Below, piece by piece: positions 7,014 through 35,359 of a stretch of 40,690 nt of DNA. The position numbers and the translations under genes were made by a program. The stretch lies in IMG/VR virus record IMGVR_UViG_2541047843_000008. One strand, given 5' to 3'. The notes below the pieces were generated by a model. That model saw nothing but the letters and a program-made list of their open reading frames with translations. It was not told the origin of the DNA and made no database searches. The stretch is from a virus. Its lineage: Duplodnaviria; Heunggongvirae; Uroviricota; Caudoviricetes. The first letter of the stretch is position 1. The number at the start of each line of letters is the position of its first letter.

Positions 7014-7104
7014 ATTTACATCGCACTCCTCTTGTGCCATAGTAATCGGGCACTGGCAAAATCCAGTGCCGGGATTGGTCTCCCGGATTACTAAGTGGCG
7101 CATA

Positions 7105-7127
7105 CCACGCCAGACGTGGTTTTTTTA
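7105..7127 (+). terminator. Rho-independent terminator after the small antirepressor-like gene
   Basis: Stem CCACG / CGTGG with 5-nt loop followed by 8 T. Confidence 0.5.
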
Positions 7128-7284
7128 TGCGTATAGCACAGTCATGCCAGAATTATGGTGGGCTGAATGGGGGTCCGAAAGGACGCCGGTACCACTTAGG
7201 CCGGTAAGACCAACTCCGTTCAGTTCACCACCATCTGATTGGTCTCAGCGGTGGTGATGTAATTCGCTAAGTGGAGACGCCATC

Positions 7285-7941
7285 ATGAACGCTCAACTCA
7301 TCCCCGTATTCAACGGCACTATATCTAACGAAACAGCCCTACTTTGTAATGCCCGCGATCTGCACGCTTTTTTAGGTGTTAAAAAGGTGTTTGCAGCATG
7401 GATTACAAATCGCATATCAGAATACGAATTCATTGAAAATCAAGACTATATTTTGCTTTCCAATTTGGGAAAGCAAACATCTGGTAGAGGCGGCCACAAC
7501 CGCAAAGAGTACCACCTCACCCTTGATACAGCCAAAGAGCTGGCGATGGTCGAGCGTAACGAAAAAGGTCGCCAGGTGCGACGCTACTTCATTGAATGCG
7601 AGAAACGTTTAAGACAACAAGAAACAAAAGTGGAGAAGGTCTTGTCAGGCTTCATGCCCGCCATAATGGAGGCGATCAAGCTGGAAGACAAAAAAGAATA
7701 CAGCGCCCCACTGAAGCCCGGCTACCGCAGCCTGATTCATTCGCCGTCTGGTGTTCTCGGCCTGACGGAGAACTCACTGCTGATGAATCTGCTGAACCAG
7801 TTACAGGACGACGGGCACGACGTATCGGGCGCGGCGGCGGAGCTGACCACCATGTTCTGCTACATCGTCGGTGTGAGCAAATGCCTGCGTGATATCCAGA
7901 CCCACGCGGAGTACATCAACGACAAGGCAGGGTTCTTCTGA
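7285..7941 (+). CDS. Antirepressor-like protein (N-terminal Ant-type domain plus C-terminal domain shared with 6710..6967)
   Basis: N-terminus resembles phage antirepressor N-terminal domains as recalled; SD GGAGA upstream; C-terminal paralogy seen directly. Confidence 0.6.
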
Positions 7942-8013: not shown

Positions 8014-8028
8014 TTACCTTAAAGGTAA
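8014..8028. promoter_or_regulatory. Operator palindrome TTACCTTAAAGGTAA upstream of the two-gene cassette
   Basis: Perfect TTACCT-N3-AGGTAA palindrome 43 nt upstream of the ATG at 8071. Confidence 0.5.
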
Positions 8029-23452: not shown

Positions 23453-23745
23453 TCCTGTTCACTGGCCTCTTTGGCCATCTTCAAATACTGTTCAGGGCAA
23501 TGCGCCATAACGCGCTGAAACAGTTCCAGCGCCAGATTGCGTTGCCCCTCATTAAATGCCATTGCCATAGCATCCATCGGAGAGATAGCGGAAAACACCC
23601 GGCCTTTCTCCAGCACCGACCAGACAACGCGACGCCCCTGTTCACTGCTCATGACAAAGCGAATGTCATCAATTTCACGCTGCTCCATGTCACGTTGCTT
23701 ACGGGCGTTTTCTTCTTTCAGTTGATCGTCTTCGTAATCTGTCAT
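23449..23745 (-). CDS. Hypothetical protein between portal and scaffold
   Basis: 98 aa, overlapping start/stop with neighbours. Confidence 0.4.
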   Translation of the reverse strand: MTDYEDDQLKEENARKQRDMEQREIDDIRFVMSSEQGRRVVWSVLEKGRVFSAISPMDAMAMAFNEGQRNLALELFQRVMAHCPEQYLKMAKEASEQE

Positions 23746-25421
23746 TGTGATTGCCCACCCTGACCACTAACTGCATTCGCCATAGCTGACAAAACACTCG
23801 GATCCGAAGTTTTAGCTTCGCTTAGCGTCTTGGCGCCCTGTGCCGCCGCCATCCCCATCGCCATCATTTGTTGCTGCTGTTGCTGCTGTGCCCGTTGCTG
23901 GCGAGCCTGCTCAACCTGTTCCTGCGGAACAATGACGGTTGGAGACACTCCGGACATATCAGCGAATGCATCGATCGCCTGATCAACGTTGAGTTTGTCG
24001 AGAGCTTCTGGTTTCGCTTGCGCAAGTTGACCAATGAAGTTAACCGTGGACGCCAGACTGGACAGGCCGATAGACTTCTGCGCCTGAGCCATGACGGAAA
24101 TGTATTCGACCTTCAGGGGCATACCTTCCATCACGTCTGGCGGTGGCGGCAGCATGTTTTTACGCACCATCATCGAGAAAGAGCGGTCAATGAGAGGATT
24201 AAGACATTCGTCGTTCAGACGCTCCAGAACCGGCCCCAACATCAGAAGTTTTTCTTCTTTCATTTCGATCACCGCTTCAACAGGCATCGAGCGGGTATTG
24301 ATGTTCTGCAACATCATGAACAGATCGACAAAGTAGGCGCTGTTAATGATTTGACGAGTGTCCTGAATGTCTGCCACCAAATCTGCTGTACTGGGGTTAA
24401 CCAGATAAGCAGGCCTGAAACCATCCTGACCAGTAATCTGATCGATATACGTGATGTCGCCAGGAAGAAGGGAGGCACGCTGATTCTTGAGGGAAGTCGG
24501 AGCAACCATCGGCGGATTGGTGGCTTTATCAATCAACTGCGACTTGCGCTTCTGGAGAAGCTGCAATGCCTTAACAGGTCCAAGCGCCAGCATACCCGGG
24601 CATGATGATCCATAAACATCTTCGCCGTTAACTTCCCAGCGCGGAGCCATAATTGGAAACTCATCGAATCCGGACTCACGCAACAACTTGTCGTTATCGC
24701 CACCAACCTCGTAATAAACCGATTTGAATGGCTTGTTCTTGCTATCCAGCTTCGATGTATCGCGGTCAATGTTCGGGTAAACCGAATGCATCACTTCAAT
24801 CCACTTCTCGTAGGTTCCGCTTTCCCACATGCTTTTTACGGATTCGCTGACGTTATTTAGCCCGAACTCCTGAACAAGCTGACGAACAGTCATAGAGAAC
24901 TTGCGAAAACAGGTGTCCACACTGCCACGAGGTGAGTTAGCCAGGTAGTAACTGCCTATCGGGAATGGCATTGTGCGAATGATGTCCTCGTCATCCTCCA
25001 GCACTGCCATTGCACCAGTGCTGTATGTGCCGAGGCTTCCGTATAACTGCGGCAGCGACTGATAGAGATTCGACTTATTGAACATATCGTTCATGCGGTT
25101 CTGCACCGCCTCAAGCCACAACTTAACAGGGCCATAATCCATCATTTCAGGATCTGGCGTAGCCAGGCGAAACCACGGACGCGCGGGGCTTGTGATGCCT
25201 GACATCATGCCGCTGGCGAGAGTGCGCGCCGCCATAGTCCCGGTCGAATCAATAATGCGTGTATTGCGTCGATCGTTACGGTTGGCCTCAGAAGTCAGAA
25301 AGCGGGAACCACGCGGGTTGATGTAATCACTCAACTCGCGCCAGTGCGGCTCGAACGACTGACGCTCGCTTTCAAGTTGTGCGAACTGTTTGTTCAATCG
25401 CTCTTTAGTTGTTTCCGCCAT
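23742..25421 (-). CDS. Portal (head-tail connector) protein, T7 gp8-like
   Basis: 559 aa; Gln/Met/Ala-rich C-terminal tail as in T7 gp8 as recalled; GGAG SD. Confidence 0.8.
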   Translation of the reverse strand: MAETTKERLNKQFAQLESERQSFEPHWRELSDYINPRGSRFLTSEANRNDRRNTRIIDSTGTMAARTLASGMMSGITSPARPWFRLATPDPEMMDYGPVKLWLEAVQNRMNDMFNKSNLYQSLPQLYGSLGTYSTGAMAVLEDDEDIIRTMPFPIGSYYLANSPRGSVDTCFRKFSMTVRQLVQEFGLNNVSESVKSMWESGTYEKWIEVMHSVYPNIDRDTSKLDSKNKPFKSVYYEVGGDNDKLLRESGFDEFPIMAPRWEVNGEDVYGSSCPGMLALGPVKALQLLQKRKSQLIDKATNPPMVAPTSLKNQRASLLPGDITYIDQITGQDGFRPAYLVNPSTADLVADIQDTRQIINSAYFVDLFMMLQNINTRSMPVEAVIEMKEEKLLMLGPVLERLNDECLNPLIDRSFSMMVRKNMLPPPPDVMEGMPLKVEYISVMAQAQKSIGLSSLASTVNFIGQLAQAKPEALDKLNVDQAIDAFADMSGVSPTVIVPQEQVEQARQQRAQQQQQQQMMAMGMAAAQGAKTLSEAKTSDPSVLSAMANAVSGQGGQSQ

Positions 25422-25435
25422 TTCAATGACTCCGG

Positions 25436-25642
25436 TTACTGACCAAGCAGCGTTTTACCGCTGGTATTAGCGGTTGATGTGTCACCCTGAGAACCGGTAA
25501 GCAGCGTAGAACTACGACCAGCAGCAGCGCGACGGCGACGAGTTTCTTCGTCGCGGGCATCAACAACGGCGGCATCCTGCTCCTGTGGTGCTGCCTGAAC
25601 TTCTGGTGTTGCAGGCACTGACGGTGAGCTACCCATGCACAT
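25436..25642 (-). CDS. Small hypothetical protein preceding portal
   Basis: ATG with a GGAGTCATTGA translation-initiation region that is duplicated in front of the portal gene. Confidence 0.4.
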   Translation of the reverse strand: MCMGSSPSVPATPEVQAAPQEQDAAVVDARDEETRRRRAAAGRSSTLLTGSQGDTSTANTSGKTLLGQ

Positions 25643-25710
25643 ATCAATGACTCCGTACGCAATTAAATTATTACCAATTTAACCACATATGATTTATTTA
25701 TCGTAGATAG

Positions 25711-25747
25711 TTGACATTTAACGCACGAATTATTACCTTTCAGGTAA
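25711..25747. promoter_or_regulatory. Promoter-like region (TTGACA) with operator palindrome TTACCTTTCAGGTAA upstream of tRNA moron and portal operon
   Basis: TTGACA hexamer at about 25711-25716; perfect palindrome at about 25733-25747. Confidence 0.5.
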
Positions 25748-26069
25748 GCAAATGGTTCATTCCGGTTATTAACCTGACTGGCTTGTCGTTAAATTGAACA
25801 GGTGGAGTGAGCTTTTATTTTGAGCAGTACGGCGTATGGCACATGCGCCGATAGCGGTCTGGATACGTTTAAGGGGCACCCTCCCTTGCTCGGGCAAACG
25901 AACCAGGTAGCCGGAATGTGCAAGTCGAGCGGTTTTATTCCGCGCACGGGGATTCACCATCCCGGCGATTCGGTGTGACGCCTCGGAAGAGACGAGGGTA
26001 CAACGATGAGAGCATTTATGGAGCCGCGACAAAGTGTGGTGCCTTAACAGGCTAAGTGCTCTCAGCGTT

Positions 26070-26146
26070 GTGGCATTAGCTCAGTCGGACAGAGCAACCG
26101 CCTTCTAAGCGGTTGGTCGCAGGTTCGAATCCTGCATGCCACGCCA
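26070..26146 (+). tRNA. tRNA-Arg (anticodon UCU, reads AGA), phage-encoded
   Basis: Cloverleaf read by hand: acceptor GTGGCAT/ATGCCAC, D-arm GCTC..GAGC, anticodon loop CUUCUAA, T-arm GCAGGTTCGAATCCTGC, discriminator G, CCA end. Confidence 0.9.
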
Positions 26147-26189
26147 GAATCACGCCTAAGGACCGTGATGCCAGAAGTTCCAGGTGCTT

Positions 26190-26232
26190 GGCGGTGATGG
26201 TTTCCCTTGAAGGACTATCACCGCCCTTTTTA
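26190..26232 (+). terminator. Rho-independent terminator after the tRNA
   Basis: 9-bp stem GGCGGTGAT / ATCACCGCC followed by CTTTTTA. Confidence 0.5.
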
Positions 26233-26349
26233 CAGCAGGACGCCATTGCGATGACTTCATGCTGTAAACCAGTACAGCCACGGAAGGCATAACTCATTGC
26301 TTCCAGTTCGCCCGGTTCGCAGGGCATTTTTTTAAGGTGAGATTAGACT

Positions 26350-26721
26350 ATGAGTGAAAAAGACATTGAATCTGAAATTCAGGCTAAAGGTTTAGCCGCG
26401 CCGCGCGTTACGCCAGACCATATCGAGAGCATTATTGCTCAGGAGGCATATTTCACAGCAGAAGATGGTGCCTTTGGCGTAGCCATAAAAGCGAAACATA
26501 CTGGCGGAGAGGTAAACTACCAGCCGCACGAATCACTTTCTCTGCTGACGTTCTGCGTCCTGGTGCTGCGCAACGGCTTCACCGTCACCGGAGAGAGCGC
26601 CTGTGCAAGCCCGGAAAACTTTGATGCAGAAATTGGTCGGAAGATTGCCCGACAGAATGCTGTAAACAAAATCTGGATGCTCGAAGGTTACTTGCTGAAG
26701 CAGAAGTTAAGCGAGCAATAA
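26350..26721 (+). CDS. Hypothetical moron protein downstream of the tRNA
   Basis: ATG with AAGGTGAG SD; opposite strand to the flanking packaging and head genes. Confidence 0.55.
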   Translation: MSEKDIESEIQAKGLAAPRVTPDHIESIIAQEAYFTAEDGAFGVAIKAKHTGGEVNYQPHESLSLLTFCVLVLRNGFTVTGESACASPENFDAEIGRKIARQNAVNKIWMLEGYLLKQKLSEQ

Positions 26722-26741
26722 CACCGTGACATATCACAAAC

Positions 26742-26768
26742 AGCCAGCCTATGAGCTGGCTTTGTTTT
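26742..26768. terminator. Putative terminator between moron gene and terminase large subunit
   Basis: Stem AGCCAGC / GCTGGCT with 6-nt loop followed by TTGTTTT. Confidence 0.45.
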
Positions 26769-26811
26769 ATCCTCATCAGAGGATATCAACAACATTATCC
26801 CCTCAAGCGGA

Positions 26812-28287
26812 TTAAGCATAGGGATCGTAATCTGTAATGGCCCTTCCCTGCTGGCTTTGCTGTCCTGGTATATTTATGCGTTTCGAGACCGGGAAAGCAA
26901 ACGTCAGCAGTAGCGCATCGCCTTTACCCGGCGAACGCCCAAGCCGCTCCTTGATATCTTCCTTCGGTTCGATAACGATTTTACCGTCCACTCGAACTTT
27001 GTACTCTGCCGCCGACAGGTCGTCCGCTGTTTCCTGGTCATCCAGCATGCCGCCCAGCCTCAGCCATGTCTTGCATGAGTTGAACATCTCCCCACGCTTG
27101 TTGAGCATCTGCGGGTCAGTAGACGCGCCACCGAACGGAACAAGTTGCCATGTACGACCCCAGCCGTCACCGATTGACTTCAAACCGGTTCCGTAACCGA
27201 AGTCGATGAACACCGCGTCAGCCTGATACTGGTCTTCAAAGTCAGCGATACGCTTCGCCATAATCAGATCGTCGGTAGTCTTGTTGCCAGTCCACAGCAC
27301 CTTACTGTGTAGCCCCTGCCGCAGGTATATCACAGCGTCATCAACGCCGGAGTATGCCGGGTCAACGCCGATTATCACCGGAGCATGTGCAACCTGCGCA
27401 GCGGTTACCACCCGTTTCATTGCCTCGTCAGTAAGACCGGTAGGGATAAACTGCAATTCAGATGCATCAGGGAATATGCCACGCACACGGATTTTAACGA
27501 AGTCGCTGTCTTCCCCGTAGTCATCAACCCATTTCTGCAACTGCTGTTTGTTGGTACCTTCCACCGTCCGACTGTCAATCTGCGCAGTTTTCCAGCGGTG
27601 TTTATACTTGCGGAAACATTCACGGAAACGTCCGGTATTACGCGTCGGGTTTCCGAACGCCACCCAGATAATCTCAGTGTCTTCGTCCGTTAGCGCACCT
27701 TCGGCAACTTCCCACACCAGATCCGCAATGTTCGACGCTTCATCAAACACCACGATGATGCGTTTGCGCTCGTTGTGTAGTCCGGCGAACGCCTCAGTGT
27801 TGTGCTCAGACCAGGGTATTGCGTCAGCACGCCACCGCTTGTCGTGCCCAGGGTCATTGCTGTACATCGCGGTAGCGGTACAGGTAAACCAGTCTTTCGT
27901 GATAGCAAGGTTCGACCACTTGATAATTTCCGGCCAGGTCTTCGTTCGTAGCTGGTTGTCGGTGTTGGCGGTCACCACGACCTTACAATCCTCGCAAGTG
28001 GACATGCCCCAGTTGATCAGCATTGAGATGAATGCGGATTTACCAATACCGTGACCAGAAGCACGTGCCAGCATAAGCGGCTGATATCTCGTCTCTGGAT
28101 TCTGCAGGTGATCACGTATCTCTCGGAACGCATCGGCCTGCCACTGACGTGGACCGGTGGCATGTGCCAGTTCAGTACCCTCTTCCCCCCACGGGAACGC
28201 ATAGAGGGCATAGCCAAGCGGATCGTGAGTGAACCCTGCAATATCCTCGATCAACTGCTCTTCAGGAGATAACGCTGTATCTGTCAC
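26812..28287 (-). CDS. Terminase large subunit
   Basis: 491 aa; Walker A-like ASGHGIGKS; acidic nuclease-type C-terminal half; GTG start overlapping the TerS stop. Confidence 0.9.
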   Translation of the reverse strand: MTDTALSPEEQLIEDIAGFTHDPLGYALYAFPWGEEGTELAHATGPRQWQADAFREIRDHLQNPETRYQPLMLARASGHGIGKSAFISMLINWGMSTCEDCKVVVTANTDNQLRTKTWPEIIKWSNLAITKDWFTCTATAMYSNDPGHDKRWRADAIPWSEHNTEAFAGLHNERKRIIVVFDEASNIADLVWEVAEGALTDEDTEIIWVAFGNPTRNTGRFRECFRKYKHRWKTAQIDSRTVEGTNKQQLQKWVDDYGEDSDFVKIRVRGIFPDASELQFIPTGLTDEAMKRVVTAAQVAHAPVIIGVDPAYSGVDDAVIYLRQGLHSKVLWTGNKTTDDLIMAKRIADFEDQYQADAVFIDFGYGTGLKSIGDGWGRTWQLVPFGGASTDPQMLNKRGEMFNSCKTWLRLGGMLDDQETADDLSAAEYKVRVDGKIVIEPKEDIKERLGRSPGKGDALLLTFAFPVSKRINIPGQQSQQGRAITDYDPYA

Positions 28288-28880
28288 TGATTACCATCCT
28301 GACGTTCTTTGAGTCGCTTCCTGGCTGCTGCTATGCGATCAGCAATTGTCACATTCACATTAACATCCAGACGTTCTTTGAACGCGTTGACATCAACATG
28401 CTTACCAATCAGCTCAAGGTTCTTCACCTTGTCAGGCCATTTAATTTTTTTGAGGATTGTCTCTATCGAATCCTCGTTCATGTTCATGATGGTCGATGAC
28501 AGATCAAAGCCACTAAGCGTAGTGCGCCAGATTTTCGGCCACTCGCGGATTGGCTTAAGGCTCCCATCGTCGTTGAGGATGTCGATCACGTCCATCTGGT
28601 CGATCTCCACCAGGCGCATGAGAACGTAATCAGCACTGACGCGCATTCGTTTGTTGCGCTCCTCCATCAACTCGGCAATCCGTTTTTGAATGCGTTCATC
28701 GCGCATCATGACACTGGCTTTAACTGCCGCTGTATTTGGGGAGAATCCTGCGTTAATCGCTGCCTGAGTCTGGTTTTCAGGCGTTTTGATGTATGACTGG
28801 CAATAAGCCTCCTGCATTGCTGTTAGTGGCTTAAATTGCGTTGATTTGCGTTTATAGGTTTTAGGTTCAGCAGGCATCAT
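28284..28880 (-). CDS. Terminase small subunit
   Basis: KPLTAMQEAYCQSYIKTPENQTQAAINAGFS matches the common terminase small subunit N-terminal HTH pattern; start taken at internal ATG after a terminator. Confidence 0.7.
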   Translation of the reverse strand: MMPAEPKTYKRKSTQFKPLTAMQEAYCQSYIKTPENQTQAAINAGFSPNTAAVKASVMMRDERIQKRIAELMEERNKRMRVSADYVLMRLVEIDQMDVIDILNDDGSLKPIREWPKIWRTTLSGFDLSSTIMNMNEDSIETILKKIKWPDKVKNLELIGKHVDVNAFKERLDVNVNVTIADRIAAARKRLKERQDGNQ

Positions 28881-28887
28881 AACCACC

Positions 28888-28916
28888 GTGGTAATAGTTA
28901 CCGTTGTGGTAATAGT
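28888..28916. repeat. Tandem direct repeat GTGGTAATAGT x2 in the terminase leader
   Basis: Two 11-bp copies 18 bp apart, between an upstream terminator and the TerS start. Confidence 0.5.
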
Positions 28917-28931
28917 ACCATGCAAAATAAA

Positions 28932-28955
28932 GCCGCCATAGTTGGCGGCAGTATT
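28932..28955 (-). terminator. Rho-independent terminator separating nin-like genes from the packaging/late operon
   Basis: Stem GCCGCCA / TGGCGGC with 4-nt loop, U-run (UUUAUUUUG) on the minus-strand side. Confidence 0.5.
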
Positions 28956-29188
28956 CAAAGTCCATCAAATTCATCGTAAAAACTCTCGTCAAGATACCCT
29001 TCCCATTTACCGCGAATGAAAATTACATCCTCGCCGCAAGGGTGCTGACTGTCGATAACTATATCCCTCCTGGCGCAACCATACTTATGCATGAGAAATT
29101 TAACCTCTTTCGGAAAATTTGCTGAGTTATCTCTCATATCTTCAAGGTCGTAGCGTATTTTTGGCATAACACCTTCGTGACATGTCAC
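28955..29188 (-). CDS. Hypothetical protein
   Basis: 77-aa ORF in nin-like block. Confidence 0.4.
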   Translation of the reverse strand: MTCHEGVMPKIRYDLEDMRDNSANFPKEVKFLMHKYGCARRDIVIDSQHPCGEDVIFIRGKWEGYLDESFYDEFDGL

Positions 29189-34774: not shown

Positions 34775-35359
34775 ATGAAAAGTATCCAGGACGTCCGCAG
34801 GCAAAATCTCAACGACTTGATCGACCGTGAATTCAATGGTGTTCAGACGCGGATGGCAGAAAAACTTGGAACTCAGGCAAATCTGGTAAACCGCTGGGCT
34901 CTTGGCAAGAAGGTTATCGGCGACCAGGTTGCACGAAAAATTGAAGCTGCCGCCAATAAACCCCGTAACTGGCTTGATATTGATCGTTCGCTTTCTCAGG
35001 AGGGTTTTCAGCCTGTCGGCCCGAGCGATATAGGTCAGCTGGCGGCTCACAATCTGGAACGCTGGATGAGCGAAAGCCGCGACCTTTCAACACAGGGAAA
35101 ACTTCACCGCGCATCCGGCGTCGCCCAGGTGACAATCAGCCGCCTGTTAAACAATGAGGTCAGCGTTTCCATTTCCACCCTGGAGAATGTTGCATCCGCA
35201 TTCGGGCGTCACGGATATGAACTACTGATTCACCCGCACGACCCTGCGACTATCAACTATGACCGCTCACGCTACGCATTGTTACCCGAAACCGAGAAAG
35301 CAAAGATCGAAAGTTACATTGAATTTGTCATCAACCAGAACGAAAAAAGCAAACAATAA
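34775..35359 (+). CDS. Repressor candidate with two XRE-type HTH domains and no LexA-like autocleavage domain
   Basis: HTH-like segments VQTRMAEKLGTQANLVNRWALGKK and LHRASGVAQVTISRLLNNEVSVSISTLENVASAFG; own terminator downstream. Confidence 0.6.
   Translation: MKSIQDVRRQNLNDLIDREFNGVQTRMAEKLGTQANLVNRWALGKKVIGDQVARKIEAAANKPRNWLDIDRSLSQEGFQPVGPSDIGQLAAHNLERWMSESRDLSTQGKLHRASGVAQVTISRLLNNEVSVSISTLENVASAFGRHGYELLIHPHDPATINYDRSRYALLPETEKAKIESYIEFVINQNEKSKQ

Follow-up and report, generated by a model that had tools for sequence, protein, structure and literature searches.

A putative Acb4-type counter-defence gene in a replaceable one-gene cassette between the terminase and portal genes of phiV10/epsilon15-like prophages

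An Acb4-family gene between the terminase and portal genes

The stretch of DNA analysed here (referred to as the window; 40,690 nucleotides) is a phiV10/epsilon15-like (Uetakevirus) prophage of Escherichia coli, with an integrase, an AntA antirepressor, isrK/C4 RNAs, a terminase and a portal protein among its content, and phiV10 is 97.9% identical to its positions 25400-26850. Between its terL and gp3-portal genes lies a gene that very probably encodes a counter-defence protein of the Acb4 type, carried in a replaceable one-gene cassette. By homology to characterized Acb4 proteins, this small protein would assemble into a homotetramer and bind cyclic dinucleotide immune signals in four pockets at the protomer interfaces. 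The likely ligands would be 3′3′-cGAMP and, probably, signals of the c-di-AMP type, as for other homologues from Gram-negative-phage genomes, and their sequestration would keep the host CBASS effectors inactive during phage replication. The gene and its surroundings consist of the following features.

23742..25421, minus strand: portal gene (PF12236, E value of 1.6e-187)
Minus strand, neighbour on the terL-portal side: gp3 homologue of 68 amino acids (PHROG 831)
26070-26146, plus strand: tRNA-Arg(UCU), anticodon tct (ARAGORN; 73.3 bits with Rfam)
26190..26231, plus strand: intrinsic terminator after the tRNA, a 14-bp hairpin (26190-26225) and then CTTTTT
26310-26325, plus strand: terminator-like hairpin GCCCGG-TTCG-CAGGGC, then T7 (26327-26333), directly adjoining the Shine-Dalgarno sequence
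26334-26341, plus strand: Shine-Dalgarno sequence AAGGTGAG, 8 nt 5′ of the ATG; left boundary of the swappable cassette
26350..26721, plus strand: acb4-family gene from the list of open reading frames, 123 amino acids, ATG start; its orthologues (“Gp49 family protein,” PF13876) are phiV10p03, epsilon15p50 and Sf6 gp66
26742..26770, plus strand: terminator 3′ of the acb4 gene, a hairpin (26742-26761) and then TTGTTTTAT; right frame of the cassette
26812..28287, minus strand: terL (PHROG 2)
28284..28958, minus strand: terS (PF03592)

The initial annotation of this locus had described a 123-codon open reading frame opposite to the late operon, with a strong Shine-Dalgarno sequence, located downstream of a tRNA and its terminator and followed by a hairpin with a T-run, and each of these elements was recovered at the positions given above. 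The reading frame is real and lies on the plus strand, opposite to terS, terL and the portal gene on the minus strand. Its ATG start is unambiguous, because an in-frame TAG (26344-26346) stands two codons 5′ of it. The second hairpin, at 26310-26325 with its T7 tract, had been overlooked. Its stem has one G·A mismatch in the copy of the window but is perfect in TL-2011b (GCCCGG/CCGGGC) and shows compensatory changes in epsilon15 (GCCCAC/GTGGGC), in whose record a terminator is annotated at this site. A terminator is likewise annotated in the phiV10 record at the site equivalent to 26742..26770, and in a terminator scan the copy of the window also scores on the minus strand. The records of phiV10 (p04), TL-2011b (gp24) and others list a “hypothetical protein” for an 83-amino-acid open reading frame (26076..26327, minus strand) that runs antisense to tRNA-Arg and its terminator; it is very likely a spurious gene call.

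Family assignment and predicted fold

No family had been assigned to the protein by eye, but one can be assigned: its residues 20 to 120 match the whole of the Pfam model PF13876 (Phage_gp49_66; model positions 1-82 of 82) with 121.4 bits, against a cut-off of 27, and an E value of 2.3e-35. It also matches PHROG 322, has more than 8,000 homologues in the databases and is named “Gp49 family protein” by PGAP in RefSeq genomes of E. coli. A spurious or chance reading frame is ruled out by the match over the entire Pfam model and by the number of homologues. The founding member of the family, Acb4 of phage SPO1, belongs to PF13876 and is a tetrameric sponge for 3′3′-cGAMP and related CBASS signals (Chang et al., bioRxiv 10.1101/2024.12.30.630793). 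In the same work, 3′3′-cGAMP was bound by all eight of the further homologues that were purified, c-di-AMP in addition by the ones whose phages infect Gram-negative hosts, and c-di-GMP by none (bioRxiv 10.1101/2024.12.30.630793). Table S3 of that study lists phiV10 Q287B5, epsilon15 A0AR14, Sf6 gp66 and N4 gp49 as Acb4 homologues, and carries no mark on which eight homologues were assayed (bioRxiv 10.1101/2024.12.30.630793). In a second paper, Acb4 is defined by PF13876. Taken together, the papers report binding of CBASS cyclic dinucleotides and inhibition of CBASS for the proteins of SPO1, the eight homologues, N4, Bas69, Ab09 and Pm86, and Acb4-Sequestin and Acb4-Tad2 fusions are active as well. 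The N4 protein has an affinity of 111 nM for c-di-AMP and sets off PanDA, a guard system of E. coli. A length of 123 residues and an origin in a phage or prophage fit Acb4, a short phage-encoded protein.

The closest catalogued relative, phiV10p03 (Q287B5), is 97.6% identical to the protein of the window (3 of 123 residues differ) and is encoded at the same junction and on the same strand, with the same Shine-Dalgarno sequence and terminators; epsilon15p50 (A0AR14), at the same junction, is 77% identical. Sf6 gp66 (Q716B1) has a C-terminal core identical to that of the window protein, although its gene lies among unrelated neighbours, with the lysis genes on one side and terS on the other. The gene is thus an already catalogued member of a characterized family and adds nothing new to the Acb4 story as such.

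Structure prediction, which the initial annotation had proposed as a check, led to the same family. The AlphaFold2 model of the monomer (pLDDT of 81, pTM of 0.70) has strands at residues 29-36, 67-73 and 78-83 and a helix at 93-122. When it was compared with the PDB using Foldseek, the best 13 matches were all chains of SPO1 Acb4 (9e4w; probability of 1.00) and the next match had an E value of 0.13; 9e4w was also the sole PDB match with phmmer. The target-normalized TM scores to the 9e4w chains (0.60-0.68, with rmsd of 3.4-6.3 Å) indicate a moderate similarity, as obtained with a monomer model. The model contains the elements of the Acb4 protomer, namely, N-terminal helices, a three-stranded antiparallel sheet, an extended β3-α4 loop and a long C-terminal helix.

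Compared with SPO1 Acb4 (PDB 9E4W), the window protein has the same order of fold elements and the ENF(N/D)xEIGR motif on the β3-α4 loop, kept here as ENFDxEIGR at the loop-helix transition, but the two are only 38% identical over 48 residues, and the window protein is longer by about 27 residues inserted between β1 and β2 and by an N-terminal extension of 20 residues. In SPO1 Acb4 the ligand is contacted by K36, F48, E49, V56, Y57, F62, N63, I66, T70 and K81, with N63 acting through its backbone. The residues aligned to these positions are L65, F77, T78, C85, A86, F91, D92, I95, I99 and M110. Three of the ten (F77, F91 and I95, which are stacking or hydrophobic contacts) are identical and seven differ, including polar contacts that read the base or the phosphate (K36 to L65, E49 to T78, Y57 to A86 and T70 to I99).

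The pattern of contact residues is close to that of N4 gp49, an assayed Acb4 of an E. coli phage, which is 45% identical to the window protein over 108 residues and shares with it F, T, C and F at the positions of SPO1 F48, E49, V56 and F62. N4 gp49 differs by a shorter β1-β2 connection and a Cys-rich C-terminal tail. SPO1 Acb4 rejects c-di-AMP, which the Gram-negative homologues accept. From the pattern of contact residues, we regard the protein as a putative cyclic-dinucleotide sponge and do not commit to an exact ligand range.

The terL-portal junction as a cargo slot

To compare the locus with related prophages, as the initial annotation had also proposed, we fetched 80 IMG/VR loci with a terL at least 98% identical to that of the window and compared their terL-gp3 intervals. 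Slot content was counted in 77 loci with terL at least 98% and portal about 99% identical. The left ∼700 nt of the slot, including the tRNA, are conserved at 97-99% up to window positions 26333-26345, that is, the Shine-Dalgarno sequence, and in the related loci conservation resumes on the right at 26717-26742, with the stop codon and the terminator. At the equivalent of window 26345-26717, between these edges, the related loci (L004-L083) carry alternative cargoes, and the slot contents are distributed as follows.

39 of 77 loci: Acb4 alleles, 65-100% identical
19 of 77 loci: 140-amino-acid protein of PHROG 4846
7 of 77 loci: 246-amino-acid protein of PHROG 4780, with transmembrane and coiled-coil segments
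5 of 77 loci: 110-amino-acid protein of PHROG 27507
4 of 77 loci: protein of PHROG 3163, similar to TL-2011b gp23
1 of 77 loci: orphan of 99 amino acids
4 of 77 loci: empty, with a mini-ORF of 8 codons

These counts sum to 79, as two loci have two cargoes in tandem. Acb4 thus occupies the slot in 39 loci, one or more of five unrelated genes in 34, and the remaining 4 are empty. Because the content is replaced between conserved edges in these 77 relatives, we consider the gene accessory cargo in a one-gene slot, outside the head module. The initial annotation had called this an unusual place for cargo, a view that this lineage contradicts: the gene has the same position in phiV10 (p03) and epsilon15 (p50), and the terL-portal junction is the regular cargo slot of the group. 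Among complete E. coli genomes, about 4% (223/5426) have the slot with an allele like that of the window.

One of the loci with tandem cargoes (IMG/VR locus L053, slot positions ∼700-1520) carries the PHROG 4846 and PHROG 27507 genes one after the other, each preceded by its own copy of the hairpin-T7-Shine-Dalgarno junction. Such an arrangement points to the junction as the unit in which cassettes are inserted.

When the alternative cargoes were searched against Pfam, NCBIfam and PADLOC, no meaningful match was obtained, apart from coiled-coil noise for the 246-amino-acid protein. A defence-system identity, either for the acb4 gene or for the alternative cargoes, received no support from PADLOC, NCBIfam or Pfam.

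The variable occupancy bears on a reading of the gene as an accessory factor of head assembly or packaging, to which we assign next to no probability. Only its position between terminase and portal speaks for such a role, whereas the gene is on the opposite strand with terminators on both sides, 38 of 77 near-identical head modules lack it or have another gene in its place, and its family is found in nonstructural regions of other phages. A structural or packaging role was rejected on the variable occupancy and on the lack of a structural-family match in Pfam and PHROG. Rather than being universal with the head module and related to a structural protein, the gene is variably present at this junction and belongs to a counter-defence family.

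The constant neighbour of the cargo is tRNA-Arg(UCU), present in 79 of 81 slots, and an RNA-binding protein acting on this tRNA or on the leader RNA upstream of it has to be weighed, since the Acb4 fold resembles those of double-stranded RNA-binding domains and ribosome hibernation factors. We consider this reading very improbable: Sf6, ASO78B, Stx2a and N4-like phages have the gene without that tRNA or leader, unrelated genes replace the cassette while the tRNA stays, and Foldseek gave no match to a double-stranded RNA-binding domain better than an E value of 0.6.

Candidate promoter, operator-like palindromes and an upstream RNA-like element

Upstream of the tRNA we located three further features.

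25711..25747, plus strand: candidate promoter TTGACA-N17-TACCTT (−35 box at 25711-25716; to 25739 without the end of the palindrome), its function being predicted
25733-25747: perfect palindrome TTACCTTTCAGGTAA, operator-like, overlapping the candidate promoter
25829..26004, plus strand: structured RNA-like element of ∼180 nt (homology to about 26073), between the candidate promoter and the tRNA

The palindrome TTACCT-N3-AGGTAA occurs in 15 copies in the window, compared with 0.8 expected, with perfect copies also at 8014, 32362 and 32424 and 11 near copies. Most of them lie by regulatory genes, namely, in the isrK/C4-AntA region, near the gene for a helix-turn-helix regulator (34775..35359) and at the candidate promoter of the tRNA and acb4. 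Bases around the −35 box and the palindrome vary among the 77 loci and epsilon15, but these two elements themselves are fixed, and the epsilon15 record has a repressor site annotated at the candidate promoter. The palindromes are probably the operator set of the prophage repressor, scattered as in P1. In the regulatory region named above, Rfam matches to isrK (7050-7126, 67.7 bits) and to C4 antisense RNA (7151-7235, 61.2 bits), both on the plus strand, stand directly 5′ of the AntA antirepressor gene (7285..7941); with this isrK/C4/AntA arrangement, the Uetakevirus-like prophage carries an immI module of the P1/P7 type.

At the threshold of our scan, no sigma-70-like site was found in 25400-26900, and no promoter of the gene’s own was detected between the two upstream terminators and the Shine-Dalgarno sequence, where inspection of 26232-26333 by eye revealed only weak hexamers. 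The sole good candidate promoter is ∼600 nt upstream of the gene and shared with the tRNA, and two terminator-like hairpins lie between it and acb4. The gene had been called a moron. Its variable presence agrees with that term, and a terminator stands downstream of it, but no promoter of its own was found and its GC content does not set it apart from the phage (0.495 versus 0.488 for the window). A compositional anomaly was thus discarded, and the gene is no textbook autonomous moron.

The likeliest arrangement is a single unit of promoter, 320-nt leader, tRNA-Arg, two terminator-like hairpins, acb4 and terminator. The cassette, framed by the hairpin/T-run and Shine-Dalgarno sequence on the left and the terminator on the right, sits in the tRNA-containing intergenic slot of phiV10/epsilon15-like phages. 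The gene would be expressed by read-through from the repressor-controlled promoter upstream of the tRNA; the unit would be repressed in the lysogen, and expression would be expected upon infection or induction.

The RNA element in the leader has homologues with 70-84% identity in lambdoid and P1-like phages and in phages of Salmonella, Klebsiella, Enterobacter and Stenotrophomonas. In lambdoid phages (mEp460, cdtI and Stx2 phages) it is located downstream of cI, whereas P1/P7-like phages have it between trnI and ban. At 80-90% identity it matches about 700 E. coli records, and in the matching records it is almost always unannotated. Its stems covary, with three compensatory variants of the hairpin CCTCG-GAAGAGA-CGAGG, and its invariant single-stranded blocks are GGTAGCCGGAATGTGCAAG and GGCGATTCGGTGTGAC. 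We obtained no Rfam match to the element at E values up to 1, no similarity to the put region of HK022 and no paper in a literature search for the invariant blocks, which together rule out a known family among those compared. In mEp460, a promoter-like site precedes the element by ∼30 nt and a terminator follows it. As a working hypothesis only, the element may act in cis as an antiterminator, allowing transcription through the two terminators before the cassette.

A hypervariable loop in an otherwise conserved putative sponge

The Acb4 alleles of the slot differ mainly in one segment.

26417..26551, plus strand: hypervariable segment by pairwise identity, about residues 23-67, between β1 and β2

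Among 38 distinct Acb4-bearing slots, the mean pairwise nucleotide identity is 0.46-0.71 in 26417-26551 versus 0.95-0.99 in the flanks, falling from about 0.97 before the segment and returning to at least 0.95 from 26582. The C-terminal core (residues 65-123) is nearly invariant, while residues ∼30-64 fall into about six discrete loop types within near-isogenic prophages, one of which equals that of Sf6 gp66. Loop variability with an invariant core is seen across the Enterobacteriaceae as well. Homologues of 100 amino acids lack the segment, which adds ∼27 residues between β1 and β2. In SPO1 Acb4, the guanine-reading K36 is on the β1-β2 turn, and from the sequence and the published description of that structure, the insertion would occupy the equivalent turn.

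Homology to Sf6, vB_EcoS_ASO78B and an Stx2a phage, at 92-95% identity in the DNA, does not extend beyond the coding sequence, and the alleles are probably shuffled by recombination inside the conserved 3′ half. Two other sources of this diversity were rejected: a diversity-generating retroelement, since the alleles differ by indels and discrete types are shared with other phages such as Sf6, and a mobile cassette that includes its flanks, since homology to Sf6, ASO78B and the Stx2a phage stops at the coding sequence.

Guard systems such as Panoptes, PanDA and Panoptoo detect sponges through decoy dinucleotides, and N4 gp49 activates both PanDA and Panoptes. The β1-β2 insertion (residues ∼37-64) may be a swappable module of specificity or evasion, and its diversity might have arisen in an arms race with these guard systems and with the variety of CBASS signals.

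The same variability could be read in favour of another job for the same sponge fold, either the capture of a non-CBASS signal (gcADPR of Thoeris or cyclic mononucleotides of Pycsar) or expression in the lysogen that alters the cyclic-dinucleotide signalling of the host, as a lysogenic conversion. SPO1 Acb4 reads the base through residues that are not kept here, the loop that supplies K36 in SPO1 is hypervariable, and sponges are known to shift ligands, with an Acb4-Sequestin fusion binding gcADPR through its other domain. However, every PF13876 protein that was assayed bound CBASS dinucleotides, and c-di-GMP, which in E. coli is the sole homeostatic cyclic dinucleotide, was bound by none of them; expression in the lysogen is further disfavoured by the operator-like palindrome that overlaps the candidate promoter. 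On balance we regard such another job as unlikely, and favour CBASS signals as the targets of the putative sponge.

Comparison with anti-defence hot spots and significance

As in the anti-signalling island of N4-like phages, the hot spots of P2 and P4 and the morons of lambdoid phages, a fixed junction here holds alternative small cargoes, including a known sponge. The slot of the window differs from those hot spots in that it holds a single gene, its edges are exactly the Shine-Dalgarno sequence and the stop codon, and it is located in the late region on the opposite strand, together with a tRNA. The gene for N4 gp49, for example, belongs to an anti-signalling hot spot in the neighbourhood of the SSB and vRNAP genes and does not lie between packaging genes. 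The other cargoes of the slot differ as well, as they have no match to a known defence or anti-defence family.

A joint explanation, in which the loop is a specificity or evasion module, the five alternative cargoes are counter-defence candidates and the RNA element is an antiterminator, is speculative, and we think it has a modest chance of being right. If it were, the proteins of PHROG 4846, 27507, 3163 and 4780 and the 99-amino-acid orphan would be candidate new counter-defence genes. For the annotation of phiV10/epsilon15-like prophages, the labels “hypothetical” and “Gp49 family protein” can be replaced by putative Acb4 cyclic-dinucleotide sponge.

Beyond the putative sponge itself, the hypervariability of the loop, the alternative cargoes and the RNA element are worth a further look. 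The locus amounts to a natural experiment, a one-gene cassette site with sharp edges that offers six versions of the loop of one putative sponge in an isogenic setting and five alternative cargoes that can be screened for counter-defence activity.
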